NCBI GenBank assembly: GCA_041660745.1
Contig: JBAZVT010000003.1
Span: forward strand, 1,880 to 65,879
Reading direction: 5' to 3'
DNA from: Minisyncoccota bacterium
GTDB lineage: Bacteria; Patescibacteriota; Minisyncoccia; Phycocordibacterales; JBAZVT01
DNA length: 64,000 bases
In this document: one piece after another, positions 7,399-58,297 of the stretch
Layout: each line of letters begins with the position of its first letter
How positions within the stretch are numbered: the stretch's first letter is position 1
Made by a program: the position numbers and the translations under genes
Notes under the pieces: model-generated
What the model was told of the DNA's origin: nothing
Seen by the model: the letters and a program-made list of their open reading frames with translations, nothing else
The model's database searches: none

Positions 7399-7483
7399 TA
7401 TAGGGTATTTACCCTTTGATGCCTTCCTCGGCTCGGAAGTGAGAAAGGGGACTTTCTCACTTCACTCACTCTACGTCAGCAAT
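7399..7483. repeat. Palindromic intergenic repeat, family 2 (AGGGTATTTACCCT + GCCTTCCTCGGCTCGGAA...CTACGTCAGCA)
   Basis: Same module recurs inverted at 30242-30325 and direct at 60876-60940. Confidence 0.6.
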
Positions 7484-26479: not shown

Positions 26480-27529
26480 TCAAGATTTTGTACTCGTCCA
26501 CCACATATGAGACTCTGACGCTGGTAATGTAGACACAATATACCTCAAAGGAGATACAAGACCAAGCGACCAATGAGGACGCCTAGTGTTGTACCAAAGT
26601 AACCAATTAATGAGAGCTTCATTAAAAGCATCAATGTCATGAGCTAAAAGTTTTCTGTTTCTGTTAACAAAAGCTTCCACAACAGTTCGGTTGAATCGTT
26701 CAACTTCAGCGTTCATTTTTGGCGATCTTGGATATGTGTGAAAATGAACGATGTTGTTCTTTTCAAGCAGAACGTCAAAGTGGTCAGCAAACTCACTACC
26801 ATTGTCTGTTTGCACATGCGTAACAGGAAGTGGTGCAACATGTTTAAACTTCATCATGAAGTCAGCAGATGCTTTTGATGAATGAGAAGTATACGCATAT
26901 GCAAAAGCAAATTTTGATTCGCAATCAATACCAGTGAGCAAATATCTTTTAATACCATCGGTGAAGCGGATGACCGAATCTGCTTTAACTAGTCCTCCTT
27001 CGTGACCTTTAGAACGCAGTTTCTTGCGTTTAACTCTGATTTTCTCTCGAAAGGTATCTGATTTTGCATAGTATGAAAGTTTCGTATATTTTGGAAGTTT
27101 TCCTTGTTTCTTGAGATCATTTAACATTCGACCGACAGTAGATGCGGAGAGATCGGCAACCTTGTCTTCTTTCATGAGTACCGCCAGTTTGTCTTTGGAA
27201 AGTCTTGGATCATTCTGGCGTTCCTTGAGAATGAAATCTTCTACAACTTTTGGGATGACACGTTTTCTTCTTTGTTTAGGAGCAGTACTTTTTTTGTTGA
27301 GAAACTCCAGTTTTCCCATACCATCTCGAAGTTCTTTTTGCCAGCGAAAAAGAGTTGGTCTTGAAATGCCAAAGGCTTCTTTAGTGGCAGTTGTTCCATA
27401 CTTCTCCCAAAACGCTAATATCCTGCACCTTTCTTTTGCGGTTTCGCTAATCATATACTTGAAGCGTATCACACGCTCCCAAGTACTAATGAAGCCCTTT
27501 GTTCCTCTAAATTTATTGAAAATGCGCAT
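26480..27529 (-). CDS. IS481-family transposase (HTH + rve DDE integrase core)
   Basis: N-terminal HTH, then integrase core (THVQTDNGSEF...YNTRRPHWSLG) characteristic of IS481/IS3-like rve transposases. Confidence 0.85.
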   Translation of the reverse strand: MRIFNKFRGTKGFISTWERVIRFKYMISETAKERCRILAFWEKYGTTATKEAFGISRPTLFRWQKELRDGMGKLEFLNKKSTAPKQRRKRVIPKVVEDFILKERQNDPRLSKDKLAVLMKEDKVADLSASTVGRMLNDLKKQGKLPKYTKLSYYAKSDTFREKIRVKRKKLRSKGHEGGLVKADSVIRFTDGIKRYLLTGIDCESKFAFAYAYTSHSSKASADFMMKFKHVAPLPVTHVQTDNGSEFADHFDVLLEKNNIVHFHTYPRSPKMNAEVERFNRTVVEAFVNRNRKLLAHDIDAFNEALINWLLWYNTRRPHWSLGLVSPLRYIVSTLPASESHMWWTSTKS

Positions 27530-27560
27530 ATGAAAACTCTAATTAAAGAGTCTCATATGT
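26503..27560. mobile_element. IS481-family insertion sequence (~1.06 kb) with perfect 14-bp terminal inverted repeats
   Basis: Left IR acatatgagactct (26503-26516), right IR agagtctcatatgt (27547-27560), enclosing a single transposase gene. Confidence 0.7.
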
Positions 27561-27670
27561 TTCTGAACTTATGCAGGTTATGGCAAAAAACGCCTTAGCA
27601 GGAGAGCCCCAAGACTAACTGTTGAAAAAAGCCTCAAAAGTGCTAAGGTGTATACATACAAACTTATACC

Positions 27671-29047
27671 ATGAGAATTCTATTCATCTCAAACGACCTT
27701 ATAGCTGGAAATCTCGCCTATCGCCTCAAACAAGAAGGTCATGATGTTAAGTTGTTCGTTGAAGAACCCCTCAGTAAAGAATGCTTCTCTGGATTAGTAG
27801 AAAAAATCGAAGATTGGAAAAAGGAACTTGATTGGGTTGGAAAAGACGGGTTGATTGTTTTTGATGACGCAGGATACGGTGAAATGCAAGAAAAGCTTCG
27901 TAACGATGGCTATACTGTATTTGGCGGTTGCTATGTTGGCGACAAACTTGAAACAGAAAGAGAGTACGGCCAAGCAATCTTCAAAGAATACGGCCTCAAG
28001 ACAGCTCCCCTCAAAAACTTTTCTTCTGTCCAAGATGCAATTGCATATGTAAAGAAAAATGGTGGGTCCTGGGTTATCAAACAAAACAACCACAACTTCA
28101 AACATCTCAGCTACGTGGGTAAATTTGAGGACGGAAGAGATATTGTTAACGTTCTAGAAAACTACGAACTACGCAACGGAGAGATAGACAAAATTACTCT
28201 GCATAAAAAGATTGAAGGCGTGGAAATAGGAGTGGGTAGATATTTTAATGGAACAGACTGGGTAGGGCCAATAGAATATAATATAGAACATACGAAACTA
28301 TTCCCTGGCTGTATTGGACCGACAACGAGCGAAATGGGAACTCTTGCTTGGTATGACGATGATGAATCAGGCAAACTTTTTAAAGAAAATTTAAATCTTC
28401 TCAAGCCATTCCTGCAACATATAGGCTATCGAGGTGATTTTGAAGTCAATTTTATAGTTAACGAGACGGGTGCATATCCACTGGAAGCAACCGCGCGTCT
28501 CGGCACCCCCATCATTCATTTGCATGATGAGATACACGAGAGTCCATGGGGAGAATTTTTATATGCCATCGCCCGTGGTGAACAATATGATTTAAAATAC
28601 AAGAAAGGATTTGGTATTGTCGTTGTTATTGCCACTCCCCCATTCCCATACTCAGAACGTGCTTACAATAGACTTTCAAACAACAACTCATACCGCTACA
28701 ACATATATTTTGATCACGAGATGAGCGCAGAAGAAATGAGCCATATTCATTTTGAAGAGGTGGCTGTGCGTGCTACTGATCCAAAACAACTCTATGTTGC
28801 AGACAGCCGAGGTAATGTTCTCTATGTTACTGGTATGGGACAAACAATCCAGGAAGCACGGGATATCACCTACGAAAAAATAAAACCGATTGTTATTCCT
28901 AAAATGTTCTACAGAAACGATATCGGAGTCGAATTTGAAAAAAATAGTCTTGGAAAACTTAAGGAATGGGGCTACATAGCCGACGGAGAAAAAAGTGAGG
29001 TAGCAGAAATGAACACAATTAGTGAGAAAACGATCGTAGGAATATAA
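27671..29047 (+). CDS. PurD-family ATP-grasp enzyme (phosphoribosylamine--glycine ligase-like, divergent)
   Basis: MRILFISND N-domain; ATP-grasp segment AIAYVKKNGGSWVIKQNN; C-terminal VLYVTGMGQTIQEARDITYEKIKPI...FYRNDIG parallels PurD VLCVTALGHTVAEAQ...FCRKDIG. Confidence 0.6.
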   Translation: MRILFISNDLIAGNLAYRLKQEGHDVKLFVEEPLSKECFSGLVEKIEDWKKELDWVGKDGLIVFDDAGYGEMQEKLRNDGYTVFGGCYVGDKLETEREYGQAIFKEYGLKTAPLKNFSSVQDAIAYVKKNGGSWVIKQNNHNFKHLSYVGKFEDGRDIVNVLENYELRNGEIDKITLHKKIEGVEIGVGRYFNGTDWVGPIEYNIEHTKLFPGCIGPTTSEMGTLAWYDDDESGKLFKENLNLLKPFLQHIGYRGDFEVNFIVNETGAYPLEATARLGTPIIHLHDEIHESPWGEFLYAIARGEQYDLKYKKGFGIVVVIATPPFPYSERAYNRLSNNNSYRYNIYFDHEMSAEEMSHIHFEEVAVRATDPKQLYVADSRGNVLYVTGMGQTIQEARDITYEKIKPIVIPKMFYRNDIGVEFEKNSLGKLKEWGYIADGEKSEVAEMNTISEKTIVGI

Positions 29048-29066
29048 TTCGCATCCAAAAGAACAA

Positions 29067-29093
29067 AAAACCGCCACACGGCGGTTTTTTGTT
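29067..29093. terminator. Rho-independent terminator
   Basis: aaaaaaCCGCCacacGGCGGttttttg. Confidence 0.6.
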
Positions 29094-29104
29094 ACAGACT
29101 ATTT

Positions 29105-30094
29105 TTATGTTTCTAAAAGCTCTCGTATCCCATCTTCAATATTCACTGTTGGCTTCCAGTCGAGAAGTTTCTTAGCAAGCGCATTATCAGCAAGAGTGTG
29201 TTTCGGTTCTAAACGTCCAGAAATATGTTCAACGGGACCGCCAATAAGCTCGGCAATTTTATTAATTGAAACATTATTCCCCGCCCCAATATTTATCACC
29301 TCACCCTTCCCCACCTTATCACTTTCCATTGCCAAGATATTTGCTCGCACAACATCACGCACATGAGTAAAATCGCGAGTCTGTTTACCATCTCCAACAA
29401 TAGTCATTGGCTTCCCTACCTGTCGCTGTTTCAAAAAACTCGGGATTACAAGTGCATATGCACCCTCAGAACTCTGCCTCAAACCATATACATTAAAATA
29501 TCTGAGACTGACTGTAGGCACCCTGTACACCTCGCTCCATGTCTTGCAATATATTTCTCCAACATATTTTTGTAAGCCATAGGGACTCTTGGGCATTGCA
29601 GTCATAGACTCAACCAGTGGCATTGTTGGTTGGTCACCATATACAGAACTTGAAGCAGAATAAATAAGTTTTTTGACCCCTGCCCATCTACATGCCTCAA
29701 GCACATTTATTGTTCCGCCAATATTAACTTCGTTTGTTTCCTGAGGATGTTCTATAGAATACTGAACGCGAGGCAAAGCAGCACAATGGAAGACGTACTG
29801 AACATCTTTAAATACTTTCTTTATTGATTCCAGACTACACACATCGGCAATATGAAGTGTTGCTTTTTTGTTCACATTTTCTCTCCTCCCTTCAGATAAA
29901 TTATCTATAATATGCACATTGAAACCTCTTTCAACTAATGCATCAACTATATTAGAGCCAATAAAACCGGCACCGCCGGTTACAACAACTTTTATAGTTG
30001 ATGGCGGGATAGTGACTCGTTTTAGTCTACTTCGTTTTGTATTTTTATTTTTCATTATCATCATAGGAAGAGACATTATAACGTATCTAGACAA
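29105..30094 (-). CDS. NAD-dependent epimerase/dehydratase (UDP-glucose 4-epimerase-like), paralog A
   Basis: Rossmann VVVTGGAGFIGSN, catalytic YxxxK (PYGLQKYVGE). Likely start at MKNKNTKR (~30055). ~70% identical to paralog B. Confidence 0.8.
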   Translation of the reverse strand: MSRYVIMSLPMMIMKNKNTKRSRLKRVTIPPSTIKVVVTGGAGFIGSNIVDALVERGFNVHIIDNLSEGRRENVNKKATLHIADVCSLESIKKVFKDVQYVFHCAALPRVQYSIEHPQETNEVNIGGTINVLEACRWAGVKKLIYSASSSVYGDQPTMPLVESMTAMPKSPYGLQKYVGEIYCKTWSEVYRVPTVSLRYFNVYGLRQSSEGAYALVIPSFLKQRQVGKPMTIVGDGKQTRDFTHVRDVVRANILAMESDKVGKGEVINIGAGNNVSINKIAELIGGPVEHISGRLEPKHTLADNALAKKLLDWKPTVNIEDGIRELLET

Positions 30095-30241
30095 CCAGTC
30101 ACTGTGGATTACTCACAAAAACTACACTAGCCCACAGAATATTTTTTTACGCATGAAAAAATAATTTTTATCCACACACAAAGCCGTTCGCTGATAAGCG
30201 AACGGCTTTGTGATTTATTTTTCGTTTTCTTTTTCTATTGC

Positions 30242-30325
30242 CGACGTAGAGCGAACGAACTGAAAAAGTGCTGACTTTTTCAGTTCTGAGCCGAGGAAGG
30301 CATCAAAGGGTAAATACCCTTTATT
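30242..30325. repeat. Palindromic intergenic repeat, family 2 (inverted copy) between the two epimerase paralogs
   Basis: Reverse complement matches AGGGTATTTACCCTTTGATGCCTTCCTCGGCTC...CTACGTCG seen at 7399-7483. Confidence 0.6.
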
Positions 30326-31244
30326 TCTCCATCTCCAACAGCTCCCTTATCCCCTCCTCAATTTTCATTGATGGTTTCCAGCCAAGTAACTTACGGGCAC
30401 GTGAATTATCTGCAAGGGTGTGTTTCGGTTCAAGACGTGCGGGGATATGCTCTGCGGGACCGCCAATGAGTTTGGCGATTTCATTCACGGAAATATTCTG
30501 TCCGGATCCTATATTAATCACCTCGCCCTTCCCCACCTTATCGCTCCCCATCGCTAAAATATTTGCTTGTACAATATCTCGCACATGAGTGAAGTCGCGA
30601 GTCTGTGTACCATCTCCTGTAATAGTCATCTTCTTGCCCTCACGATGCTGTTTGAGAAACCGGGCAATAACAAGTGCATAAGCACCCTCTTCGCTCTGGC
30701 GAGGGCCGTAGGCATTAAAATAGCGCAAACTGACGGTAGACAAGCCATACACCTCACTCCACGTTTTACAATAGAGTTCCCCGACATATTTCTGTAAACC
30801 ATAGGGACTTTTTGGACTGGCAAGCATACCTTCCACAAGAGGCATTTTTGTCTGATCACCATATGCCGCAGATGAGGCGGAATAGATAAGTTTTTTCACC
30901 CCTGAAGCGCGACAGGCCTCAAGCACATTTATTGTTCCGCCAATATTAACCTCGTTTGTTTCTTGAGGATGTTCTATAGAATACTGAACTCGAGGCATCG
31001 CAGCAAGATGGAATACATAGTCAGCACCTTTGAATAATTTTTTCAGAGCTGTGAAATTACAAATATCTGCGACATGAAGATGTGCCTTTTTATGCACATT
31101 CTTTCTCTTCCCCTCCGAAAGATTATCTACAACATGAACATCGAAACCCTTCTCCACAAGTGCATCTGTTAGATTTGAACCTATAAATCCTGCTCCACCA
31201 GTGACGACAACTTTGATTTTTGAATCATTCTTCAATGCAGGCAT
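30321..31244 (-). CDS. NAD-dependent epimerase/dehydratase (UDP-glucose 4-epimerase-like), paralog B
   Basis: MPALKNDSKIKVVVTGGAGFIGSN; same catalytic motifs as paralog A. Confidence 0.85.
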   Translation of the reverse strand: MPALKNDSKIKVVVTGGAGFIGSNLTDALVEKGFDVHVVDNLSEGKRKNVHKKAHLHVADICNFTALKKLFKGADYVFHLAAMPRVQYSIEHPQETNEVNIGGTINVLEACRASGVKKLIYSASSAAYGDQTKMPLVEGMLASPKSPYGLQKYVGELYCKTWSEVYGLSTVSLRYFNAYGPRQSEEGAYALVIARFLKQHREGKKMTITGDGTQTRDFTHVRDIVQANILAMGSDKVGKGEVINIGSGQNISVNEIAKLIGGPAEHIPARLEPKHTLADNSRARKLLGWKPSMKIEEGIRELLEMEK

Positions 31245-37248: not shown

Positions 37249-37362
37249 AGTTCTGGCGGCTAGCTACTTTCCCCTCCATAAGAGTATCATCACCGCAAGA
37301 GAGCTTAACTTCTGAGTTCGGAATGAGATCAGGTGTATCCCCTCCGCCATACCACCAGAACT
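37249..37362 (-). rRNA. rrf: 5S ribosomal RNA
   Basis: Reverse complement AGTTCTGGTGGTATGGCGGAGGGGATACACCTGATCTCATTCCGAACTCAGAAGTTAAGC...GCCGCCAGAACT matches the universal 5S core CCGAACTCAGAAGTGAAAC; 5'/3' ends pair. Confidence 0.85.
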
Positions 37363-37495
37363 TAAAATTCGATATATCAAAAAACAAACCTAATAATTAC
37401 ACGGAAATACACACATCTCGCCCATCGCGAGTAGTATATAATTCCATGTAACAGGGTAAAAAACAAAAAATCTTTCTGTGACGTATCACAGAAGT

Positions 37496-40919
<3,424 letters not shown>

Positions 40920-50386: not shown

Positions 50387-51082
50387 TTATTTTGGCTCAC
50401 CTCTTAAATCTCCAAGATCCCTGAACTCAAGCCAGTCAGAAACAATACTTTCAAAAGATGGCGCTGGAGACGAAAAGTAATCCGGAAACTCATCAGCTTT
50501 TAGTATTTTTGATTCAGGTCTTAAATTAAAGTTAATTTCCACATATTCCTTGTAACTTGAATATTTATAATTATCTAAGAAATTCTCAGCTTTTTGCATG
50601 TCCACAACCCCCCTCTCTTTCCACGCAGGATCAATAATCTTTACCGGATTTAAATGTATATATGAAACTAAATACTTTAAATATTCGTCGGTATTTGCAT
50701 GAACTGCTTTAAATCGGCTCTCAAAAAGACTTCCGGTCCGTGTATTTTTTCTATTGAAATACATTGAGTATGACGTAAGCAATTTACCCAAAAATTTACT
50801 TATACCACCTTCTTCTGTTTCTTTTAAAAGTATGTGGAAATGATTTGGCATCAAACAGTATGCGCCGACAGAAACAATACTATCTTTCTTTTGAAAATTA
50901 AAAATATCCTTAAATTCCTTCTCAATCTCCCTAAAAGTTATATTTTGAGATGTATTATAAACAAATAAACCTTTAATAAAACGTTGATAATCTCTTTCGT
51001 CCTGAAAAATAAAGCGTTTATCAACGCCTCGAGCATAAATGTGATAGTACTCTCCTACACTAAATTCGATTTTTCTTTGCAT
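50387..51082 (-). CDS. IS200/IS605-family Y1 HUH transposase, REP-associated (RAYT / TnpA_REP-like)
   Basis: HUH motif LMPNHFHILL; catalytic Tyr region YLKYLVSYIHLNP; N-terminal YHIYARGVDKRFIF. 231 aa; flanked on both sides by REP palindromes. Confidence 0.8.
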   Translation of the reverse strand: MQRKIEFSVGEYYHIYARGVDKRFIFQDERDYQRFIKGLFVYNTSQNITFREIEKEFKDIFNFQKKDSIVSVGAYCLMPNHFHILLKETEEGGISKFLGKLLTSYSMYFNRKNTRTGSLFESRFKAVHANTDEYLKYLVSYIHLNPVKIIDPAWKERGVVDMQKAENFLDNYKYSSYKEYVEINFNLRPESKILKADEFPDYFSSPAPSFESIVSDWLEFRDLGDLRGEPK

Positions 51083-51096
51083 TTTTATAAGAATAG

Positions 51097-51143
51097 AGGT
51101 TTTACATAGGACCGCCCTATGTTTTTACATAGGGCGGTCCTAT
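51097..51143. repeat. REP hairpin, partner of the 50341-50386 copy
   Basis: ACATAGGACCGCCCTATGtttttaCATAGGGCGGTCCTATGT. Confidence 0.7.
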
Positions 51144-51146
51144 GTT

Positions 51147-51329: not shown

Positions 51330-51420
51330 TGTAATCGTATTATAACAAAGGCCTTCAGATAAGGGAAAAATGTTGCTCATAATCTGTGGATAACTCAAGA
51401 ATATATAAAATGCATACGAC

Positions 51421-51480
51421 CGCCCTATGTATGTCACGGGAAAATTCCCAACTCCCTACCCTAGGGATGTCCTATGTATA
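51421..51480. repeat. Degenerate REP-like palindrome (ACGACCGCCCTATG ... CCTATGTATACG)
   Basis: Shares the ACCGCCCTATG core and an upstream CTGTGGATAACT motif (51384-51395) with the copy at 50310-50386. Confidence 0.5.
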
Positions 51481-51573: not shown

Positions 51574-53454
51574 TTATTTAAGTCTTGATACTTCTGTATC
51601 AATGTCATTCAAGCCAGCTACGTATGATGTTGCGGCTGAAGTAACTGCATCACTGAAGTTAACTTCTGCAAGCTTAACACCTACATAGTTTGTTGATGAT
51701 GTTGCACCGTTCTCAACAGTAACCTTCAAAGTGAATGTTTCTGTCTGTCCCTCTTGAACGAGGTATGAGCCACCGGTCAAATCAGCATCTGAACTGAGAT
51801 CACTTGAAACTGTTGAACCTGAAATTGGGTTAACAATTGCAAACTGAACGCCAGTTGAAGTTGCTGTTGTTGTTGCACCCTTGAGGATGTAAGCATCTTC
51901 ACCAAATGATGTAACACTGAACTTGATTGTGTATTCGTTTCCAAATACTGTTTCTGAGTCGTTAGAAGCAACAACTGAAGTGCTGACTTCCTTGACTGAG
52001 ATACCATTTACGTAGAATGTCATAGTTTCACCGTTTGCAGAACCTGAAACTGAAACTACATCACCCTGAACGTTTTCAACGTCGAAGTCGTTTGAAACTC
52101 CAACAGAGACTTCTGCAGCATCACCGTTTGCGAATGTTGCATCGTCTGTGTCATTGAGGTCAACTTTAACAGTCAAAGTAACTGTATCATCTTCGTCAAT
52201 TGAAAGATCGAGATCTTCAAACAATACTTCACCTGAAGCATTAGCTGAAGCGATAGTTACAGAATCAAGAAGATCTGAACCGTCGTAAAGGTAAACTTTC
52301 TTGAACATACCTGTGATTGTACTTGTTGCACCTGAAGTTGTTGCAATAACAACTGGGATTTCATTAACAACCATATCTCCATCGTTTGCCTTGAGCTTGA
52401 AGACAAGAGCTGTAACATCTGTTGTGTCATCAGACTCGTCAACTTCAATACTCTGAGCGTCTGGATTTGAAGTTGCTTCACTTACAACGAGATCCTCACC
52501 TGAGAGGCCAGCAACATCAAAGGTTTCAACTGTACCCTCGAGGTCTGTCTGAGATCCAGCAACCTTACTGTAGGTATCACTGATTCCAGCACCATCAACT
52601 GCGCGGATTCCACTTACTGGAATTGCAACAGTCCATGTTGTACCTTCGTCATCTCCGTCAACGTTCTCAACTGCAGTAACCTCAACAAAGAGTTCTGCAA
52701 CTTCATCTGCTTTTACAACACCACTAAGGCCTGTAAAGCGGAATGAGTATACATCACTGTCTTCGTCTGCTTCTGAAGCATCCATAGTGTCAATGGTCTT
52801 ACCATCAAGGACGAGAGCTACTGAGTCAATGTATCGTGTCAAACGATCTGATGCACCTGTAGCAACTGTTGTTGCTTTGAAGTCAACATCAATACGTGAA
52901 ATAACGATATCTGAATCTTTTGCTTCAACCTCAAGACCGAGAACCTGAACATCTTCGTCACCTTCTTCAATTGATGAATCAACTGAAAGTGTGTCATTGA
53001 TGTCAAGAGAACCTTCTTCGCCAGATGTTGTTACAACTGGTGTTGTTGGTGTTCCTGGTGTAACTACAACTGGAGCTGCAACATTCAATGCTGCGCGGGT
53101 CAAAGGACCAACGTAACCTGTTGCACTGATTCCCTTTGTAGCTTGGTATGCCTGTACAGCTGCTTTGGTGATAGCACCGAAGTAACCTGTAGCTGGTGTA
53201 ACACCGAGCTTTGCCTGGAGAGCTGAAACATCAGCACCTCGTGAGCCTACAGTAAGATCTGTTGAGTAAACATATCCTGCTGGTGTTGATACTGTTGAAC
53301 CACTAAGCTGGGCGATCTGGGCCTGGAGCTGAGCGATCATTGCGTTCAAAGCTGCAATGTCTGTTGTCTGTGCCTTTGCTACTGGAGCGAAGACAAGACC
53401 AAGGACGATAGCAACTGCCGCAACTACTGCGAACAATTTTGTTGTTTTTGTCAT
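51574..53454 (-). CDS. Secreted protein with two N-terminal peptidoglycan-binding (PG_binding_1) domains and a long Thr/Val/Asp-rich beta-rich repeat region
   Basis: Signal peptide MTKTTKLFAVVAAVAIVLGLVFAPVAKA (ATG at complement 53454). PG-binding repeats GSRGADVSALQAKLGV...GYFGAITKAAVQAYQATKGISATGYVGPLTRAAL. Confidence 0.8.
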   Translation of the reverse strand: MTKTTKLFAVVAAVAIVLGLVFAPVAKAQTTDIAALNAMIAQLQAQIAQLSGSTVSTPAGYVYSTDLTVGSRGADVSALQAKLGVTPATGYFGAITKAAVQAYQATKGISATGYVGPLTRAALNVAAPVVVTPGTPTTPVVTTSGEEGSLDINDTLSVDSSIEEGDEDVQVLGLEVEAKDSDIVISRIDVDFKATTVATGASDRLTRYIDSVALVLDGKTIDTMDASEADEDSDVYSFRFTGLSGVVKADEVAELFVEVTAVENVDGDDEGTTWTVAIPVSGIRAVDGAGISDTYSKVAGSQTDLEGTVETFDVAGLSGEDLVVSEATSNPDAQSIEVDESDDTTDVTALVFKLKANDGDMVVNEIPVVIATTSGATSTITGMFKKVYLYDGSDLLDSVTIASANASGEVLFEDLDLSIDEDDTVTLTVKVDLNDTDDATFANGDAAEVSVGVSNDFDVENVQGDVVSVSGSANGETMTFYVNGISVKEVSTSVVASNDSETVFGNEYTIKFSVTSFGEDAYILKGATTTATSTGVQFAIVNPISGSTVSSDLSSDADLTGGSYLVQEGQTETFTLKVTVENGATSSTNYVGVKLAEVNFSDAVTSAATSYVAGLNDIDTEVSRLK

Positions 53455-53555
53455 ATAGTAATGAATTCTAATAAATGAGTATTTGTGCAAGACACGTTAC
53501 TTAATAAAAAGGTGTGTTCACACAACTACTGTAATAAATTTCACGATCGTACTAT

Positions 53556-53573
53556 ATATAGTACGTTAGTGAA
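53556..53573. promoter_or_regulatory. Perfect 18-bp palindrome CGTACTATATATAGTACG ~100 bp upstream of the PG-binding protein start; candidate operator or promoter element
   Basis: Perfect dyad symmetry with central TATATATA. Confidence 0.3.
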
Positions 53574-53814
53574 CCTAATAATGCGTCATCACTCTTGCGA
53601 GCGACAACAAACTACACATTCACTAATCTCGGGGGCTTTATTACTCAACCGCCCCAGGTGGACAAAAGAATTTATTCATTCGTCCACGCGAGGCAGTTAA
53701 ATCGACACAAAGCTTTTACGAGTTTAGGTGATGAAAGTAGGTCTGAGTTCTATCGGAAGCAACCATGTCTGAAGAAGTGTACGGGAATGTCTTTTAGACT
53801 GGGAATAAGAAATC

Positions 53815-53886
53815 CTGGATTGCTTCGGATGATTACATCCTCGCAAAGACAGAAACTGGATCCCCGCATCCGCGAGGATGACAGAG
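53815..53886. repeat. Palindromic repeat, family 1 (CTGGATTGCTTCGG ... CCTCGCAAAGACAG + GGATCCCCGCATCCGCGAGGATGACAG)
   Basis: Arms shared with 43118, 55771 and 61593 copies. Confidence 0.55.
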
Positions 53887-54251
53887 AAAAGATGTCTTAA
53901 TTCAAAGTCTTACTGCGCTATTTAATTGTCAAAGGTCTATCGTATTATCCACCCTCTCTGTAACATCTTACGAACACCGCGTGTATTCGTTACATGCCTT
54001 CATTAACTTTCTATCTGTAATGTGGACGTACCATGAAGATACATCTACTGGATAATTATATTCCTTATACAGGTACACTGCAAAGGATACTGTGGATAAC
54101 TTCTAAAAAATCCCGCACGGGACACATCTAGAAGTGGGTATAAGTATAGTCTTTTTATGAAGAAAGTCAATGAAGAAAAGGATTAAAAAGTAATTATGTG
54201 GCTAAAAGCATACGTATTTAGTATGAGTATAAGGAGGTAAAAGAATGCTAA

Positions 54252-54300
54252 AAACAGAGGCTTAGCCTTTTTGAAGATCCAAGGCTAAGCCTCTGTTTTT
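54252..54300. repeat. Palindromic repeat, family 4 (ACAGAGGCTTAGCC ... GGCTAAGCCTCTGT)
   Basis: Three copies: 54252-54300, 54562-54608, 63516-63563. Confidence 0.6.
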
Positions 54301-54358
54301 AAAAGAAAAAAGGAGAAGGTTAAATCATAGACTGTTCTCTACTACACAAAAAGCCACA

Positions 54359-54428
54359 TGTCATTCCCACGAAGGCGGGAATCTGGATTTGCATTGAACC
54401 TGGATTCCCGCCTTCGCGGGAATGACAG
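54359..54428. repeat. Long near-perfect inverted repeat, family 1 variant (GTCATTCCCACGAAGGCGGGAATCTGGAT ... TGGATTCCCGCCTTCGCGGGAATGACAG)
   Basis: ~26-bp arms around a 17-bp spacer. Confidence 0.6.
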
Positions 54429-54561
54429 AGAGGAGGACAAAAAAGATATTAGAAGGCTCGCAAAGACAGGAGAGGAAAAAAGCAAAGACAAAAGTCCGAC
54501 CTTTTTGCAGTAAAAAGGTCGGACTTTTGGAAAGACGAGATATGAAAGAAAATATGAAAAT

Positions 54562-54608
54562 ACAGAGGCTAAGCCTTTCTGGGGATTTAAGGCTTAGCCT
54601 CTGTATTT
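54562..54608. repeat. Palindromic repeat, family 4 copy; likely terminator of the wHTH gene
   Basis: TACAGAGGCTAAGCCtttctggggatttaaGGCTTAGCCTCTGTAttt. Confidence 0.55.
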
Positions 54609-54618
54609 ATTTTGTCCT

Positions 54619-55506
54619 TTAAGCGAACGCGAGAGAGTATGTACTCCAACGGCGTTCCCCTTCTTTCTTAAGGACACCTTCGGCAACAAGGGCGAGAAGC
54701 TCGCGTTGGAGAGTTTTCTCACTACACCCCTTCACCACATCAGCAATATCTTTCACACTAACTTTACTCTTTCTGGTTACAAGGGCGAGAATTGCAGTAA
54801 CACGTTTTGTCTTCTTTTCCTCCACAGGAGACACATGAGCTGGTCGTGCCGGAGCTATATTTTGAGTAAATGTCTTTTTGACAGAAGTGGACGATGAAAC
54901 AAACGGAGCCTCTGCAGGTCGAGATTGTTCACGAGATATAAAGGACACTTTTTGTGAGGGCATAAAGTTGTCTTTTATAACTTTTCTTTCTTCCTCTCGG
55001 ACGGCTGACACATCTGCGTGCGTGGAATTTATTTCTGGTTTTTTTACATGGAAAAATGATTCCCCAAATGCCATCGGATTCACTCCAATAGTTTCAGAGG
55101 CCTCTTTCTTGTCCACAAGATTTATAAGTGCTGTAAACTCCCGTAAAAGTATCGTGTGGTTCATCGGACTAATGAGTCCAGCGGTATGTGCTATTTCTAC
55201 GAGCGTTGCAAGATGGGTAATTCCCTTCTTCACACTTACAAGCGAAAACCCTGAACCTGTTCCTGAGATGGACATAGCCGTGAGAATGTCTGAGAGAATT
55301 GTTGACGATGCGGAGCGCATATTCCACTTCATCGGCTCATTGTCCGAGAAGAAATTTGTAATGAGGTAGAGTGCAGTAGCGAGACGTTCTGTCTTTTTGT
55401 ATATAAAAGCAGATCCAGCATCACCATTAAAGACACTTAAAGAAACCTCTTTCTTTTCAGGGGTATTTTGTACGGCTGTATTCTGGATGTCTTTTTGATT
55501 ATCCAT
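54619..55506 (-). CDS. Hypothetical DNA-binding protein with C-terminal winged helix-turn-helix
   Basis: C-terminal KRVTAILALVTRKSKVSVKDIADVVKGCSEKTLQRELLALVAEGVLKKEGERRWSTYSL (wHTH). N-terminal ~200 aa unassigned. Flanked by long repeat-rich non-coding DNA. Confidence 0.55.
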   Translation of the reverse strand: MDNQKDIQNTAVQNTPEKKEVSLSVFNGDAGSAFIYKKTERLATALYLITNFFSDNEPMKWNMRSASSTILSDILTAMSISGTGSGFSLVSVKKGITHLATLVEIAHTAGLISPMNHTILLREFTALINLVDKKEASETIGVNPMAFGESFFHVKKPEINSTHADVSAVREEERKVIKDNFMPSQKVSFISREQSRPAEAPFVSSSTSVKKTFTQNIAPARPAHVSPVEEKKTKRVTAILALVTRKSKVSVKDIADVVKGCSEKTLQRELLALVAEGVLKKEGERRWSTYSLAFA

Positions 55507-55770
55507 AGTATTGTCTTTTATGTATTAAACGTACCTTCTAAAGTGTCCTTTATAGCACTTCCTTCCCGAGACATTTGTAATGGACATTAGTATACACCTG
55601 ACCCCAGAAATTGCAATAGGTCAAAGAATTGCAATGTCTTTTATATGTCTTTGAACATGTTTATACGGCGAAGTACGGGGATAAAAACGGTGGATAACAT
55701 TGTAGTTACTATAAGACGAACGTGATATAATAAGAGAAGTATAAGGAAGGGTGTGAGAAAGAGAAAAATA

Positions 55771-55903
55771 CTGGATTGCTTCGGAATACCTCGCAACTAG
55801 AGCACCTGATACCCGCGAGCGGTAAAGACAGAATGGAAAAGGTAGGAGAAAATAGAGGAACAAAGACTGGATTGCCACGTCGGCAACCTCCTCGCAATGA
55901 CAG
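55771..55903. repeat. Composite family 1 repeat (two CTGGATTGC...CTCGCAA(T/C)...GACAGAATGGAAAAG units) upstream of ftsK
   Basis: Tandem half-units at 55771-55835 and 55868-55903. Confidence 0.55.
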
Positions 55904-55939
55904 AATGGAAAAGACAAAAAACATAAAAACTAAACTATC

Positions 55940-58297
55940 ATGGCACGAGAAAAATTAGAAAAAGAAACACGAACAGAGCGCGAGGAACGTGGCGAGAAAT
56001 TTGAACGTTCCCAAAGAAAACAGAAAAAACAACGTGGTGTTTTTCGAGACCTCCAAGACGAGACCCGTCAGCATGTCTGGGGGATCGTATTTTTTGTTAT
56101 TGGAATTTTTCTCATTTTGGCAGCATTCGGCGGCAGCGATAGTAACCTCGCAGGACGAGCTGGTGGATTCTTCTATGGGACATTTCACACCCTACTCGGT
56201 ATCGGTTATTACATGATTCCCCTTCTCATGTTCATGCTCGGCATATCTTTTATGAAAGCTATGGAGAGAAGTTTTGCACTTACAAAAACTATTGGTGCGG
56301 TAATCTTCTTCCTCTCTTCTCTCGGAACAATTGGCACTATCGGTATCATTGTTGATGATCGCATCGGTGGCATCCTCGGATATTATGTTGCCCTACCCCT
56401 TGTCGGACTTTTTGATATTTATGCGACGCTCATCTTCCTCCTCGCACTCGTCGGTATTTCTTGTCTCATCATATTTGATACACACATCAACTTCAGCACC
56501 TTTGCTTTCGTAAAAAGAATGTTTGCACGGAAAGAAAAAGTACTCTCTGCAGAATTGGATACCGAGGAGGAGAAAAAGGCAGATGCAGCTATTGCTGTTG
56601 AGATGAAAAAAGTAGAAGAAAAGCCAGAACAAGCAGCCCAGAAAAAAGCACCTCTCGGAAAGATAGATGATAAAGATTTTTCTGTCTCTCAGAGGCACTT
56701 TGCCCTTGGGGTAAAGTTCATCCCTCCCCCGCTCTCCCTGCTGGAACGAGATAAAGGGAAACCAGAAGTTGGTGATATCAAAGCACAAGCAAACATCATC
56801 AAGCGTTGTTTACAGAATTTCGGCATCACTGTGGAAATGGACGAAATCTCTATCGGACCAACTGTCACACGATACGCACTCAAACCCGCAGAAGGTGTGA
56901 AACTTTCAAAGATAGTCTCACTCCAAAACGACCTATCTCTAGCTCTCGCTGCCCACCCCATCCGTATTGAAGCACCTATCCCCGGCAAGTCGCTCGTAGG
57001 TGTTGAAATACCAAACGTTACCAAAACCATGGTTGGTCTTGGATCCATGTTTGCTATGCCAGAATTCTTGGAATCACCAAAACCAATGCTTGTATCTATC
57101 GGTCGCGGTATTTCTGGAGCATCGCATTTCTCCGACTTGGCAAAAATGCCCCACCTCCTTGTTGCTGGTGCTACCGGTTCCGGTAAGTCTGTGACCATCC
57201 ACACACTCATCACTTCGCTTCTCTACCGCAACTCACCAGAAGACATGAAATTCATTATGATTGACCCGAAGCGTGTGGAACTTACTCTCTACAACAAAAT
57301 CCCCCACCTCCTTACCCCCGTTATTACTGATGCGAAGAAAACTATTCTATCTCTGAAGTGGGCAGCTAAAGAAATGGACCGACGCTATGATGTGTTGCAG
57401 ATTGAAAAGTGTAGAGATATAAACTCGTACCACAAGAACATCCTCGGTCCCGCCATGAAGAAATATGAGGAAAAGCTAGCAAAAGGAACCGTAAGCGAGG
57501 AGGACCAGAAAAAGATGCCTGAGACGATGCCTTACATCGTGATTATTATAGACGAGCTCGCAGACCTCATGCAGGCATACCCACGAGAACTGGAATCAGC
57601 GATCGTCCGCCTCGCACAAATGAGTCGTGCTGTTGGTATTCATCTCATTATTTCCACACAACGTCCATCTGTAAACGTTATCACCGGTCTTATCAAAGCA
57701 AACATTCCGACTCGTATTGCTCTTCAGGTGGCTAGTCAGATAGATTCACGCACAATTTTAGATATGGGAGGTGCCGAAGAATTGCTCGGCGCCGGAGATA
57801 TGTTGTATCTCTCCCCTGATATTTCCAAACCAATCCGCGTACAGTGTCCGTTCATATCTGAAAGCGAGGTTAAAAAGGTAGTGGATCATGTTGCGGAACA
57901 ATACGCAGGATCAATTCCAAGCGAAATTAACTTTAGTGAAGAACAACAAAAAAATGCCCTCTTTGACGCACAGCTCGACGAAGTAGCTGATATGGAAGAC
58001 GAGGACGAACTCTATGAAGAGGCTCGAGAGATTGTTATTGCATCACATAAAGCATCTACTTCATTTCTTCAGCGAAAGCTGGGGGTTGGATATGCTCGCG
58101 CGGCAAAACTTATTGATTCACTGGAAGCACGCGGTGTCGTGGGTCCTGGAAACGGATCTAAGGCTCGTGATGTCCTGGAAAGTGCCCCTCAAGGCATTGG
58201 GGAGGACTTTGCAGCAGCAAGTGCAGAAGCAGCACGAGAAGATGCTAGATCTGGTGGTAATACAGATACAGAAGAAGAAGAGGCTAAAACGTTTTGA
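55940..58297 (+). CDS. ftsK: DNA translocase FtsK (N-terminal 4-TM domain, linker, RecA-like motor, gamma domain)
   Basis: Walker A LVAGATGSGKSV; Walker B IVIIIDELADLM; gamma-domain wHTH (ASTSFLQRKLGVGYARAAKLIDSLEARGVV). Confidence 0.9.
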   Translation: MAREKLEKETRTEREERGEKFERSQRKQKKQRGVFRDLQDETRQHVWGIVFFVIGIFLILAAFGGSDSNLAGRAGGFFYGTFHTLLGIGYYMIPLLMFMLGISFMKAMERSFALTKTIGAVIFFLSSLGTIGTIGIIVDDRIGGILGYYVALPLVGLFDIYATLIFLLALVGISCLIIFDTHINFSTFAFVKRMFARKEKVLSAELDTEEEKKADAAIAVEMKKVEEKPEQAAQKKAPLGKIDDKDFSVSQRHFALGVKFIPPPLSLLERDKGKPEVGDIKAQANIIKRCLQNFGITVEMDEISIGPTVTRYALKPAEGVKLSKIVSLQNDLSLALAAHPIRIEAPIPGKSLVGVEIPNVTKTMVGLGSMFAMPEFLESPKPMLVSIGRGISGASHFSDLAKMPHLLVAGATGSGKSVTIHTLITSLLYRNSPEDMKFIMIDPKRVELTLYNKIPHLLTPVITDAKKTILSLKWAAKEMDRRYDVLQIEKCRDINSYHKNILGPAMKKYEEKLAKGTVSEEDQKKMPETMPYIVIIIDELADLMQAYPRELESAIVRLAQMSRAVGIHLIISTQRPSVNVITGLIKANIPTRIALQVASQIDSRTILDMGGAEELLGAGDMLYLSPDISKPIRVQCPFISESEVKKVVDHVAEQYAGSIPSEINFSEEQQKNALFDAQLDEVADMEDEDELYEEAREIVIASHKASTSFLQRKLGVGYARAAKLIDSLEARGVVGPGNGSKARDVLESAPQGIGEDFAAASAEAAREDARSGGNTDTEEEEAKTF

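Follow-up and report, generated by a model that had tools for sequence, protein, structure and literature searches.

The window analysed here, a stretch of 64,000 nucleotides from a Minisyncoccota genome, raises the question of why so much non-coding DNA lies on both sides of a gene for a winged-helix (wHTH) protein. A sequence-only reading had described two ORF-poor stretches there, had called this the most anomalous non-coding stretch in the window, and had named as candidates a degraded integrated element with its repressor, a regulatory hub, a replication-related site or a long ncRNA. The description itself is borne out: with the likely ATG of the downstream gene placed at 53454 (MTKTTK..., signal peptide), the first stretch covers 53455-54618 (1164 bp) and is the longest gene-free stretch among the window's long ORFs, and the second, 55507-55939, is non-coding too. 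The sole ORF of more than 100 aa in the first stretch (53595-53900, plus strand) gave no match in a family search and is disrupted by a 95-nt indel in the closest relative, L001.

The wHTH gene (54619..55506, minus strand, 295 aa) stands between ftsK (55940..58297, plus strand), a divergent and conserved left neighbour with recA next to it, and a gene for a secreted surface protein with a PG_binding_1 domain (51574..53454, minus strand, 626 aa from the ATG). The order recA(-) ftsK(-) / wHTH(+) / long spacer / PG_binding_1 gene(+) is found in essentially all of 80 GTDB loci and in L001 (Paceibacterota), with median spacers of 261 bp upstream and 596 bp downstream of the wHTH gene, and in nearly every locus the next gene after the wHTH gene is an ortholog of the PG_binding_1 gene. 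The product of this downstream gene matches the Pfam domain (E=9e-11), its PDB sequence matches are limited to the PG-binding domain, and the gene is fast-evolving. Identity to L001 is 83.7% for recA, 81.3% for ftsK, 76.7% for the wHTH gene and 56.4% for the PG_binding gene, compared with 87.3% for the non-coding DNA from the predicted promoter P1 to the ATG and 93.9% for the final 281 nt of the leader.

The candidate of a degraded element with its repressor holds that the wHTH gene and the flanking repeats are foreign DNA, the remnant of a mobile element or prophage. It can call upon a repeat-dense stretch with a small HTH protein and on a RAYT-type transposase 2.4 kb away. However, every locus examined (~80 genomes) shows the wHTH gene and its two neighbours in the same order, with the same housekeeping genes beside it; the protein has more than 1200 homologs, and those with an organism label come from Patescibacteria. 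Neither an integrase nor att-like boundaries were found, and the palindromes flanking the RAYT gene (50340-50382, 51102-51144) belong to another family than the repeats of the region, so that a mobile origin is extremely unlikely.

The repeats are real, and at least seven copies are present instead of the five first counted. Hairpin elements of the form CTGGAT...WGACAG lie at 53815-53852, 53856-53884, 54359-54390 (inverted), 54396-54428, 54452-54469 (partial), 55771-55831 and 55867-55903; there are also a 52-nt terminator-like hairpin in two copies (54249-54301, 54558-54609) and a hairpin at 54489-54529. The repeats are hairpin elements of the NTS/SRM type that were inserted in this lineage. 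The NTS or Ssn-related motif (SRM) hairpin repeats include dRS3 of Neisseria, where NTS-type repeats have been linked to recombination control near surface-protein genes (PMC11893778). Two copies (53856-53883 and 54400-54427) fit the published SRM pattern exactly, TGTCATTCCCGCGAAGGCGGGAATCCAG (54400-54427, minus strand) fits the NTS consensus CGTCATTCCCGCGMAVGCGGGAATCYRG except for the first base, and the window's repeats are likewise intergenic, oriented, clustered and adjacent to a surface-protein gene (PMC11893778). They differ in that the longer copies (37-63 nt), despite having the same termini, contain loops that exceed the limit of the SRM pattern, and in that the host is an ultra-small CPR bacterium. 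The 64-kb window yielded no GIY-YIG ssnA-like ORF.

The positions of repeat copies differ between the window and L001. A 95-nt insertion with two NTS/SRM-type repeats (53799..53894, plus strand; repeats at 53815-53852 and 53856-53884) is missing at the same point in L001; the variable 3' flank of the wHTH gene (54176..54618), which holds terminator-like hairpins and an inverted NTS/SRM pair (54359-54427), aligns to L001 with many gaps and an identity of only 47%; and two more SRM-like repeats just upstream of ftsK (55760..55915, plus strand) are gapped or unalignable there. The number of copies and the differing insertions would suit a functionless spacer in which repeats are tolerated and accumulate. 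Nevertheless, once the repeats are removed the spacer still measures ~620 nt and is conserved above the level of recA, and orthologous spacers without these repeats (median ~600 bp) have in common the box, promoters, boxA-like word and RNA motif discussed below. Simple accumulation is already refuted for the conserved core and has next to no probability as an account of the whole region; it remains true for 54176-54618, 53799-53894 and 55760-55915. It had been proposed that such accumulation would be the answer if GC skew did not switch here and if the spacers of relatives were short and repeat-free: no switch was found, but the spacers of relatives are long and conserved.

A replication-related site was another of the candidates, namely a chromosomal origin, or a DnaA-titrating or DnaA-reactivating site of the datA/DARS kind, with a cluster of DnaA boxes. 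It draws on three boxes with at most one mismatch within 260 bp (53945, 54091 and 54197, the last with one mismatch), a further one-mismatch box at 55689, perfect boxes elsewhere in the window at 51385 and 50311, a coarse cumulative skew minimum near 52-54 kb, and the deep conservation of the perfect box. Over the whole window, 35 boxes have at most one mismatch, as against 19.0 ± 4.3 in shuffled sequences (0/100 shuffles reach 35). The suggested GC-skew check, when run per gene, points in the opposite direction. To the right of the region the skew is about +0.02 for plus-strand and -0.11 for minus-strand genes, which matches the left replichore (29-51 kb), while the opposite replichore (1-26 kb) has values of +0.17 (plus) and +0.08 (minus). 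Because the right side matches 29-51 kb and not 1-26 kb, both flanks belong to the same replichore and there is no origin-type switch; the only sign change, from + to -, occurs at 27-29 kb. In addition, dnaA is absent from the window and from the ±6 kb around the orthologous locus (80 genomes; 86 loci). No pronounced AT-rich tract stands out either; GC reaches its minimum over 100 bp at 0.28.

The boxes themselves also argue against an origin. Each spacer has one conserved box, which is always at a fixed distance from a -10 element, and the imperfect extras are barely above background (0.63 vs 0.25 per kb). Three DnaA-like words had been singled out: TTATCCACC, a DnaA-box-like word, does lie at 53945-53953 (plus strand) but falls in a gap of L001 and is non-conserved; TGGATAAT is present, at 54049-54056 and not at 54047, would belong to the -10/start region of promoter P2 and is altered by an indel in L001; and TGTGGATAA, the perfect minus-strand box at 54091-54099, is conserved. 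Only this box and the one at 55689 are retained in L001. An origin or a related site is thus largely refuted already, and we consider it very unlikely.

The perfect DnaA-box consensus TTATCCACA (54091..54099, minus strand) is better understood from its surroundings. A promoter scan identified two candidate promoters on the same strand: P1 (TTGACT-16-TATACT, 54143..54170), which is 100% conserved in L001 and whose word TTGACTTT occurs in 30/58 orthologous spacers, and P2 (TTTGCA-18-TATAAT, 54055..54084), found in the same arrangement in 52 loci. A small GC hairpin with a T-run (54110..54123, minus strand) separates P1 from the box; in L001 its stem is retained while the loop and closing pair differ, and similar small hairpins occur upstream of the box in many loci. 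Transcription would meet, in order, P1 (54170..54143), the small hairpin, TTATCCACA some 8 nt upstream of the P2 -35 (about -52 to -44 relative to P2), and P2 itself (54084..54055). Exactly one perfect sense-strand TTATCCACA is present in 52 of the 58 orthologous spacers, always 30-32 nt upstream of the TATAAT -10, and perfect boxes have a density of 1.37 per kb in the spacers vs 0.116 per kb over all loci.

In E. coli, the dnaA gene has a DnaA box between its promoters P1 and P2, and DnaA-regulated promoters exist in B. subtilis. The arrangement described here resembles the former, with a perfect 9-mer box between tandem promoters and at a fixed distance from the downstream one, although the target would be a cell-surface protein gene and not dnaA, and the putative box is single. 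Most likely, to judge from its identity with the universal box consensus, the box upstream of P2 is where DnaA would bind as a transcription factor. A different factor could act there, because elsewhere in these genomes perfect boxes are found at a variable distance of 40-46 nt from the -10 elements of unrelated genes.

P2 would start a ~590-nt leader of the PG_binding_1 surface-protein gene, since consensus matches and strand point to a start at P2, read-through from P1 and co-transcription of leader and gene. The predicted leader RNA (53455..54048, minus strand, ~594 nt), which would extend from the start region of P2 as far as the ATG and serve this gene, is 87-94% identical to L001 and has a folding z-score of -7.4; orthologous leaders measure 200-800 nt in 52 loci. 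Along it would come a boxA-like word, the two repeats inserted in this lineage, a covarying motif (53735-53615), more hairpins (among them the 18-bp palindrome), UUAUUAR words rich in A/U and, finally, a start codon without a Shine-Dalgarno sequence. A single TAAAAGACA word (53786..53799, minus strand), the same as that of the operator-like array of the wHTH gene, is conserved in L001. With regard to the palindrome, the perfect 18-mer CGTACTATATATAGTACG is real but is located at 53548-53565; the position first given, 53556-53573, is roughly the right arm of a larger dyad (53540..53573, centre 53556/53557, arms 53540-53556 and 53557-53573, 88% complementary) that would form a hairpin within the leader. 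The dyad is identical in L001 and is thus uninformative for covariation, and more distant loci showed no recognisable equivalent. As for the window-specific hairpins in general, this palindrome included, their support comes from only two nearly identical genomes.

The boxA-like element GACCTTTGACAATTAAATAGC (53917..53937, minus strand) has the core CTTTGACAA at 53926-53934, which occurs with at most one mismatch on the sense strand of 37/52 leaders (chance expectation ~2.5); the 23S leader within the same window carries the related word CCTTGAAAAATAAC. By analogy, it may take part in Nus-factor antitermination. It could alternatively serve as a -35, since it contains TTGACA, but no consistent -10 follows. 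Like rRNA-operon leaders (NusB/NusE), the region has, as predicted here, a tandem pair of sigma-70-type promoters followed by a long leader that is not translated, and the window's word CTTTGACAATTAAATAG resembles the E. coli rrn sequence GCTCTTTAACAATTTATCAG. It differs from them in that the leader precedes a protein-coding surface-protein gene, in that Nus binding is putative, and in the presence of an extra covarying motif without rrn counterpart. The same word CTTTGACAATTAAATAG resembles GYTCTTTAANA, the gamma-proteobacterial boxA consensus (PMC5725501). boxA has been described upstream of non-rRNA genes as well (Baniulyte et al., 2017; PMC5725501).

Within the leader lies a conserved structured RNA motif (53615..53735, minus strand; covariance model R1, 42.3 bits, E=1.5e-5). 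It consists of CUA and a pyrimidine-rich strand, UUGUGUCGA, optional hairpins, an (A)AUAUGA-like junction, and a purine-rich strand followed by UAGU; the window's copy has a modest score (42 bits) and the junction GUAAUAAAG instead of AAUAUGA. The 12-pair helix of the motif is 90-93% paired, vs 37-54% when the partner strand is slid, with compensatory changes in 9/12 pairs. In the hand-anchored MAFFT alignment A5, 89.7% of cells are paired (41-54% slid) and the covariation score is 0.593, vs 0.26 in shuffles, 0/500 of which reach 0.593. The same helix was recovered independently by RNAalifold on a subgroup, and the G-U pairs fall on the sense strand. Over 928 kb, R1 gives 50 sense-strand matches, one per locus and all in the orthologous spacer (28 of them outside the seed, to which the window's own copy belongs), and elsewhere only one weak antisense match (E=0.81); in 447 kb of unrelated metagenome DNA containing the motif's 14-mer it gives none. 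About 30 of the 80 loci have no R1 match, some being truncated contigs and some possibly divergent. The recommended search for known RNAs yielded no Rfam 15 match to the motif, which is uncatalogued.

The candidate of a long ncRNA therefore holds insofar as a conserved structured RNA exists. A free-standing ncRNA gene, trans-acting or structural and merely upstream of the surface-protein gene, would account for the strong promoter of its own, the very high conservation, the predicted structure with its covarying motif, and the 100-300 nt between motif and start codon. However, no intrinsic terminator was recognised between motif and ATG (window, subgroup 1); in every case the RNA has the orientation of the PG_binding gene and borders directly on it; R1 has no second copy in the window's other 62 kb or in ~12 kb per locus; and no further promoter could be recognised for the downstream gene. 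An independent RNA gene is unlikely, and most simply the conserved RNA would be the long structured 5' leader of the PG_binding_1 gene.

Long stabilising 5' UTRs precede S-layer and surface-protein genes, as in slpA of Lactobacillus and in slpA of Thermus, which has the regulator SlrA. The leader described here similarly precedes a secreted, presumably abundant, fast-evolving surface-protein gene, with a predicted dedicated DNA-binding regulator encoded next to it; it is, in contrast, much longer (200-800 nt) and carries a boxA-like word together with a defined covarying motif, and the PG_binding_1 protein is only a putative S-layer protein. High leader identity beside a diverged gene (94% vs 56% against the closest relative) could also reflect recombination and not selection on RNA function, the leader being mainly an anchor or expression site at which diverged surface-protein alleles are swapped, with its identity maintained by gene conversion. 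The link of NTS-type repeats to recombination control near Neisseria surface-protein genes is in line with this (PMC11893778). Compensatory changes over 50 distantly related genomes, however, require selection on pairing, and the motif, box and promoters are retained between lineages whose flanking proteins are only 30-40% identical, which makes a recombination anchor quite improbable.

The remaining element is the wHTH gene and its product. A C-terminal wHTH had been considered the protein's only recognisable feature; it is indeed present (aa 227-292; HTH_DeoR matches 29/31 members, and structure comparison shows a resemblance to ArsR/SmtB/BlaI), but the N-terminal 110 residues also give a confident model (pLDDT >90) of a four-helix bundle (aa 30-141) of the Avd / 23S-rRNA-IVS-protein type. 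Against 2gsc/2rld the bundle reaches Foldseek TM-scores of 0.81-0.84 (normalised to target length); Avd (4dwl) is also among the matches listed, and PF05635 matches weakly in 4/31 members. The model thus suggests an Avd-like bundle fused to a DeoR/ArsR-type wHTH. The bundle superposes on the IVS 'S23 ribosomal' protein 2gsc with an rmsd of 1.5 Å over ~106 residues; unlike the IVS proteins and the DGR accessory protein Avd, it is joined to a wHTH by a disordered linker of ~85 residues, and no reverse transcriptase or DGR lies nearby.

Upstream of the gene, a predicted promoter (TTGCAA-16-TATACT, 55616..55589) and 5'UTR (55507..55730, minus strand) are 82.5% identical to L001 and contain a one-mismatch DnaA-type box (55689-55697) and WRGACA/TGTCYW words at ~55512, 55544, 55575-55590, 55635 and 55647. 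Across loci, WRGACA reaches 12-18 per kb in the upstream spacer (sense strand), vs a background of 1.6 per kb (290 observed vs 30 ± 5 in shuffles), with spacing peaks at 11, 19-21 and 30-31 bp, and inverted copies bracket the wHTH -10. The region thus resembles an operator, a helically phased array of TATAAARGACA words. As in ArsR/SmtB, DeoR and BlaI/MecI, whose wHTH fold is matched, the repeated sites overlap the -10 and start region of the gene itself; the array differs from these systems in having a long phased direct-repeat array (median 4, maximum 13 per locus) and not one palindrome, and no metal-binding or effector domain is recognisable in the protein. The wHTH gene is probably autoregulated through this array, its own product being the likely binder through a putatively oligomerising Avd-like bundle, a flexible linker and the DeoR/ArsR-type wHTH; past the gene's terminator hairpins lies the variable tract that accumulates NTS/SRM-type repeats. 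The conserved promoters, the conserved box and the phased operator-like array lend weight to the regulatory hub among the first candidates.

A model of the region can be built on what was observed, namely synteny, conserved sequence, covariation, and where the motifs lie and how they are phased. To these observations the model adds predicted transcription starts, predicted proteins bound at the box, at the array and at the boxA-like word, and a function for the RNA motif, which could lie in the binding of a protein or small molecule for regulation, or in processing or stabilising a very abundant mRNA. Taken together, the region is probably a cis-regulatory module conserved in Paceibacterota that was invaded by mobile hairpin repeats.

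The two spacers that flank the gene of the winged-helix-turn-helix (wHTH) protein (54619-55506, minus strand) contain no credible open reading frames, the sequence-only reading having described them as ORF-poor, and the downstream one, 53455-54618, is the longest gene-free stretch of the window. The anomaly noted in these long spacers is real. On one side lies ftsK (55940-58297, plus strand), followed by recA and efp, and on the other the gene of a secreted protein with a PG_binding_1 domain (51574-53454, minus strand) and a RAYT-like Y1 transposase gene (50387-51082, minus strand). A MAG of Candidatus Paceibacterota encodes a hypothetical protein identical to the 295-aa wHTH protein, whose family has more than 1200 members; those labelled with an organism are Patescibacteria. 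The region is probably a conserved regulatory module inflated by mobile repeats, and we infer the functions of all its elements from sequence. The module would comprise the gene of a wHTH regulator with an Avd-like bundle, apparently autoregulated, then tandem promoters with a DnaA-type box, and then a long boxA-bearing leader with a covarying RNA motif, which precedes a surface-protein gene that diverges rapidly; in the window's lineage, mobile hairpin repeats and extra terminator hairpins would have enlarged the module by about 0.6 kb.

In the locus of the closest relative (L001) the gene order is the same, the wHTH protein is 77% identical and the spacer measures 1 kb. Alignment to this locus splits the spacer in two. 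The first part, 54176-54618, is composed of repeats and hairpins that resemble terminators and shows no conservation (identity 47%, numerous gaps); over the second, 53455-54175, identity is 87%, and it rises to 94% in the final 281 nt. This second part surpasses recA (84%), ftsK (81%) and the wHTH gene (77%) in conservation, and the downstream surface-protein gene (56%) by a wide margin. When the non-coding segments of the window were searched with nhmmer against 86 loci, the close relative alone was recovered, which indicates that similarity at the DNA level is lost further out; conservation was therefore traced through k-mers and anchored alignments instead. In a class-wide set of 80 loci from GTDB species representatives, the order recA(-) ftsK(-) / wHTH(+) / spacer / PG_binding gene(+) is kept in all 80, and the downstream spacer has a median length of 596 bp (range 239-1280 bp). 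Because loci across the class share long spacers, the long spacer is ancestral and not a product of repeat accumulation. The suggestion that the region is a degraded integrated element accompanied by its repressor was rejected, given that the wHTH locus is syntenic in every locus examined and no integrase lies alongside it. When 45784-51100 is compared with 13724-14311 of L001, rplJ-rplL is found directly after the PG_binding gene in L001, whereas the window carries about 7 kb extra at this point, namely the RAYT gene together with an ORF of 202 aa and the gene of a beta-helix/LTD protein of 1263 aa.

The repeat copies, first counted as five, are real and number at least seven, and those at 53799-53894 and approximately 55760-55915 are insertions relative to L001, which has a repeat of the same kind elsewhere. 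The 18-bp perfect palindrome also exists, but at 53548-53565; the coordinates originally assigned to it are those of its right arm. The hairpin repeats resemble the NTS/SRM repeats, which typically flank the ssnA GIY-YIG gene and have lately been linked in Neisseria to ssDNA nucleases and the control of recombination (PMC11893778). Exact matches to the SRM pattern, HGTCWYN(0-2)YYVSBRHN(0-5)WNVSBRGN(0-2)RNCYNB (PMC11893778), occur at 53856-53883 and 54400-54427, both on the minus strand, with 0.16 expected in shuffles; the second, TGTCATTCCCGCGAAGGCGGGAATCCAG, fits the Neisseria NTS consensus except for its first base. Longer copies of the form CTGGATTGC...CTCGCAAWGACAG have the same termini as the SRM-matching repeats. 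Approximately 10 hairpin copies are present in the window, all of them intergenic and at positions that differ from those in L001; multi-copy, intergenic and insertion-polymorphic, the repeats behave as NTS/SRM repeats do. A search of the 64-kb window with a GIY...YIG regular expression found no GIY-YIG ssnA-like ORF.

The region's repeats were also considered as REPs of the nearby RAYT, and this was rejected because a different family, of CATAGGACCGCCCTATG palindromes, flanks the RAYT gene. On either side of the gene stands a 43-nt pair of palindromes, CATAGGACCGCCCTATG-N-CATAGGGCGGTCCTATG (50340-50382 and 51102-51144), with AGTTATCCACAG after each copy. A half copy lies at 51410-51430, and the layout is of the REPIN/RAYT kind. 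Besides its occurrences at 54249 and 54558, the 52-nt terminator-like hairpin ACAGAGGCTAAGCCTT...AAGGCTTAGCCTCTGT has a third copy at 63518-63562, and the terminator hairpins are themselves a repeat family in the window. Elsewhere, a repeat of approximately 70 nt (families D8 and D18) has two copies, 7415-7482 and 60871-60935, which are 86-94% identical and lie in spacers 53 kb apart, and 29105-31244 holds a tandem pair of NAD-dependent epimerase/dehydratase paralogues with 76% identity over 300 nt.

The three DnaA-box-like words reported in the downstream spacer are all present, although one begins at 54049 and not at 54047, and two of the three are missing from L001, which keeps only 54091-54099. 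According to k-mer counts and anchored views, a perfect TTATCCACA occurs on the sense strand (that of the wHTH and PG_binding genes) exactly once in 52 of 58 orthologous spacers, and in these 52 loci the box stands 30-32 nt upstream of a TATAAT. Between the two lies a -35-like TTTGCA or TTTGAA, which defines a predicted promoter, P2, placed at 54084..54055 in the window by a promoter scan; upstream of the box there is a small GC hairpin and a second predicted promoter, P1 (TTGACTTT...; 54170..54143 in the window). The distance from the box to the start of the ORF ranges from 200 to 800 nt in the orthologous loci. A consensus box at a fixed position with respect to promoter elements is one of the features of a DnaA-regulated promoter, for which P2 is a candidate. 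Other perfect boxes in these genomes are likewise found in spacers upstream of genes, at variable distances. One of them, at the rplJ-rplL promoter of L001, is homologous to 51385-51393 of the window, where this box-bearing promoter faces the RAYT gene; TTATCCACA as a general mark of the rplJ-rplL promoter was rejected, being present in just one of the 10 loci with L10 in range. Our literature search found no earlier description of DnaA boxes, promoter motifs or structured RNAs in CPR/Parcubacteria.

Boxes clustered in a long spacer could also denote a replication-related site, and boxes with up to one mismatch are about twice as frequent across the window as in shuffles (35 vs 19 +/- 4.3), with imperfect boxes at 0.63 per kb in the orthologous spacers vs 0.25 per kb in the background. 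Conserved boxes, however, are not several per spacer, as the counts of the perfect word show, and GC skew has no switch from negative to positive at the site. To the right of the region, per-gene GC skew is approximately +0.02 for plus-strand genes and -0.11 for minus-strand genes, as at 29-51 kb, which places the region in the same replichore, and unlike 1-26 kb, where the values are +0.17 and +0.08, respectively. By GC content in 100-bp windows no strongly AT-rich tract stands out, the lowest value being 0.28, at 54150-54249, the P1 region. Linkage to dnaA and dnaN is usual at a bacterial oriC, if not obligatory, and tblastn with approximate B. subtilis-like DnaA query segments returned no dnaA match in the window or in the 86 loci. 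The replication-origin reading of the region is very probably wrong, and for annotation the locus shows that a long spacer with DnaA boxes is insufficient to call an origin. The sole change of GC-skew sign in the window, from positive to negative, falls at approximately 26480-29100 (about 27-29 kb), beside an rve-family IS transposase gene (26480-27529), and it could represent the terminus or a joint produced by rearrangement or by assembly.

From the P2 start region to the ATG at 53454, the leader would extend over approximately 594 nt. A first block of it, gaaCTTTGACAAttgAATAG, is shared by 37 of 52 leaders, the same number in which CTTTGACAA, with at most one mismatch, is found on the sense strand. 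This word agrees at seven of eight core positions with the boxA consensus GYTCTTTAANA, which is that of gamma-proteobacteria (PMC5725501) and may not be that of the host. A related word, CCTTGAAAAATAAC, is found in the window's own 23S leader, the one rRNA leader examined. The possibility that the word is instead the -35 element (TTGACA) of a third promoter was rejected, since no consistent -10 follows it and many orthologs read CTTGAAAA. The leader is a candidate boxA or Nus-factor leader on a protein-coding gene. The rRNA content of the window amounts to one 23S and one 5S; no 16S rRNA or tRNA was found in the whole 64 kb by an Rfam scan and ARAGORN. The 23S match (37251-40906, minus strand), with the 5S gene next to it, covers 3400 nt against a 2925-nt model, a length that implies one or more insertions.

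The second block of the leader consists of CUA, a Y-rich strand and UUGUGUCGA, then 0-100 nt of optional hairpins, and then (A)AUAUGA, an R-rich strand and UAGU. In one subgroup, RNAalifold pairs the two strands with 10 compensated pairs. Automatic placement of the 3' strand was wrong in about nine loci, including the window, and was corrected by inspection and then with a covariance model. In an alignment of 23 sequences, which represents all subgroups and the window, pairing reaches 89.7%, and only 41-54% if the 3' partner is displaced by 1-3 columns, nine of the 12 helix pairs show double changes, and the covariation score is 0.593, vs 0.26 in shuffles, with none of 500 shuffles reaching 0.593. 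The covariance model built from this alignment (R1) has one sense-strand match per locus in 50 loci, 28 of them outside the seed, always in the spacer before the PG_binding gene, and a single weak antisense match elsewhere in 928 kb; the window's copy, at 53615-53735 (minus strand), scores 42.3 bits. Pairing in a 51-sequence alignment is 93.4%. A metagenome scan with the motif's 14-mer TTTGTGTCGATTTA gave chance matches only, without intermediate relatives, and served as a specificity control: R1 had no matches in 447 kb of unrelated metagenomic DNA containing the 14-mer.

A long non-coding RNA had been among the candidates, with a check for RNase P, tmRNA, 6S and SRP RNAs suggested. Neither these families nor others, riboswitches and leaders included, match the region: at the gathering score, Rfam 15 recognises the 23S and 5S rRNAs alone in the whole window, the region yields noise only at E up to 10, the leaders of five orthologous loci yield nothing at E up to 0.1, and ARAGORN detects neither tRNA nor tmRNA in the window. 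A description of the motif was not found in the literature. Predicted folding of the complete 594-nt leader is much more stable than that of its shuffles (z = -7.4), a difference to which the inserted repeats and the palindrome contribute. A structured, conserved and covarying domain in an inferred 5' UTR is one feature of riboswitches and other cis-regulatory leaders; as an expression platform, neither a terminator nor anti-RBS pairing was recognised in the leaders examined. The motif lies 100-300 nt from the start codon. The final 150 nt or so of the leader (53455-53600, minus strand; columns 630-740 of A4 for the subgroup-1 leaders) contain several UUAUUAR words, and the start codon of the PG_binding gene has no Shine-Dalgarno sequence; the words may enhance translation as an A/U-rich element or may form a repeat to which a protein binds.

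In the AlphaFold2 model of the wHTH protein, residues 30-141 form a four-helix bundle predicted with confidence, and a disordered linker joins it to the wHTH domain (aa 227-292). By Foldseek, the bundle superposes on 2gsc and 2rld, of the 23S-rRNA-IVS or 'S23' family (TM-score 0.81-0.84, normalised by target length; E ~5e-3), with Avd also listed, and the wHTH domain resembles ArsR/SmtB/CadC/BlaI. Profile searches agree weakly with these structural matches: PF05635 is detected in 4 of 31 members only, with E=0.04, and HTH_DeoR in 29 of 31, with a best E of 1.2e-5, the window's own protein remaining below the Pfam cut-off. In fold or profile, the wHTH domain is of the DeoR/ArsR winged-helix repressor type.

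Across the family, the spacer between ftsK and the wHTH gene is rich in WRGACA words, with the extended form TaTAAARGACA, at a sense-strand density of 12-18 per kb vs 1.6 per kb in the background (290 observed vs 30 +/- 5 in shuffles). Inverted copies bracket the -10 element (TGTCYT-N11-14-TATAATGGACA), and direct copies are most often 11, 19-21 or 30-31 bp apart, a phasing that is as expected for sites bound on one helix face. The simplest reading of this pattern is that the wHTH gene would be autoregulated by its own oligomeric product. In the window, 14 of 21 strict operator-like matches fall between 53.8 and 55.9 kb. Eight strict [AT]AA[AG]GACA matches lie from 54613, at the wHTH stop codon, to 55488, within the coding sequence and not upstream alone. 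A different word, CCATTACARAT, is found just after the -10 in three start regions, all on the minus strand: the 23S rRNA promoter region (approximately 41150-41190; TATACTAATACCCATTACAGATATG), the wHTH promoter and 5' UTR (55572-55594; TATACTAATGTCCATTACAAATG) and the start of the PG leader (approximately 54015-54030; CCACATTACAGATAG). It may be a common site or an element of start regions.

In CPR/Patescibacteria, whose genomes are tiny and have few recognisable regulators, the control of gene expression is, to our knowledge, barely understood. The locus described here provides a concrete and testable regulatory module, conserved across a whole class, in which a strongly covarying RNA motif is absent from Rfam and the universal DnaA-box consensus occupies a fixed promoter position outside any origin. 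It also presents a new domain fusion, of an Avd-like bundle with a wHTH, for which a phased operator is predicted, and extends NTS/SRM repeats to CPR bacteria, where they again adjoin a surface-protein gene. A bolder proposal, put forward tentatively and rather unlikely as a whole, is that the UUGUGUCGA/AUAUGA motif (53615-53735, minus strand) is a regulatory RNA of a new class, either a riboswitch or a sensor bound by a dedicated protein, which would control the major fast-evolving surface protein of Paceibacterota; DnaA would couple its promoter to the replication cycle, and the locus would also be under multivalent regulation by the Avd-like wHTH protein. If true, this would be a CPR-specific circuit that joins replication, cell division (ftsK/recA) and envelope synthesis.
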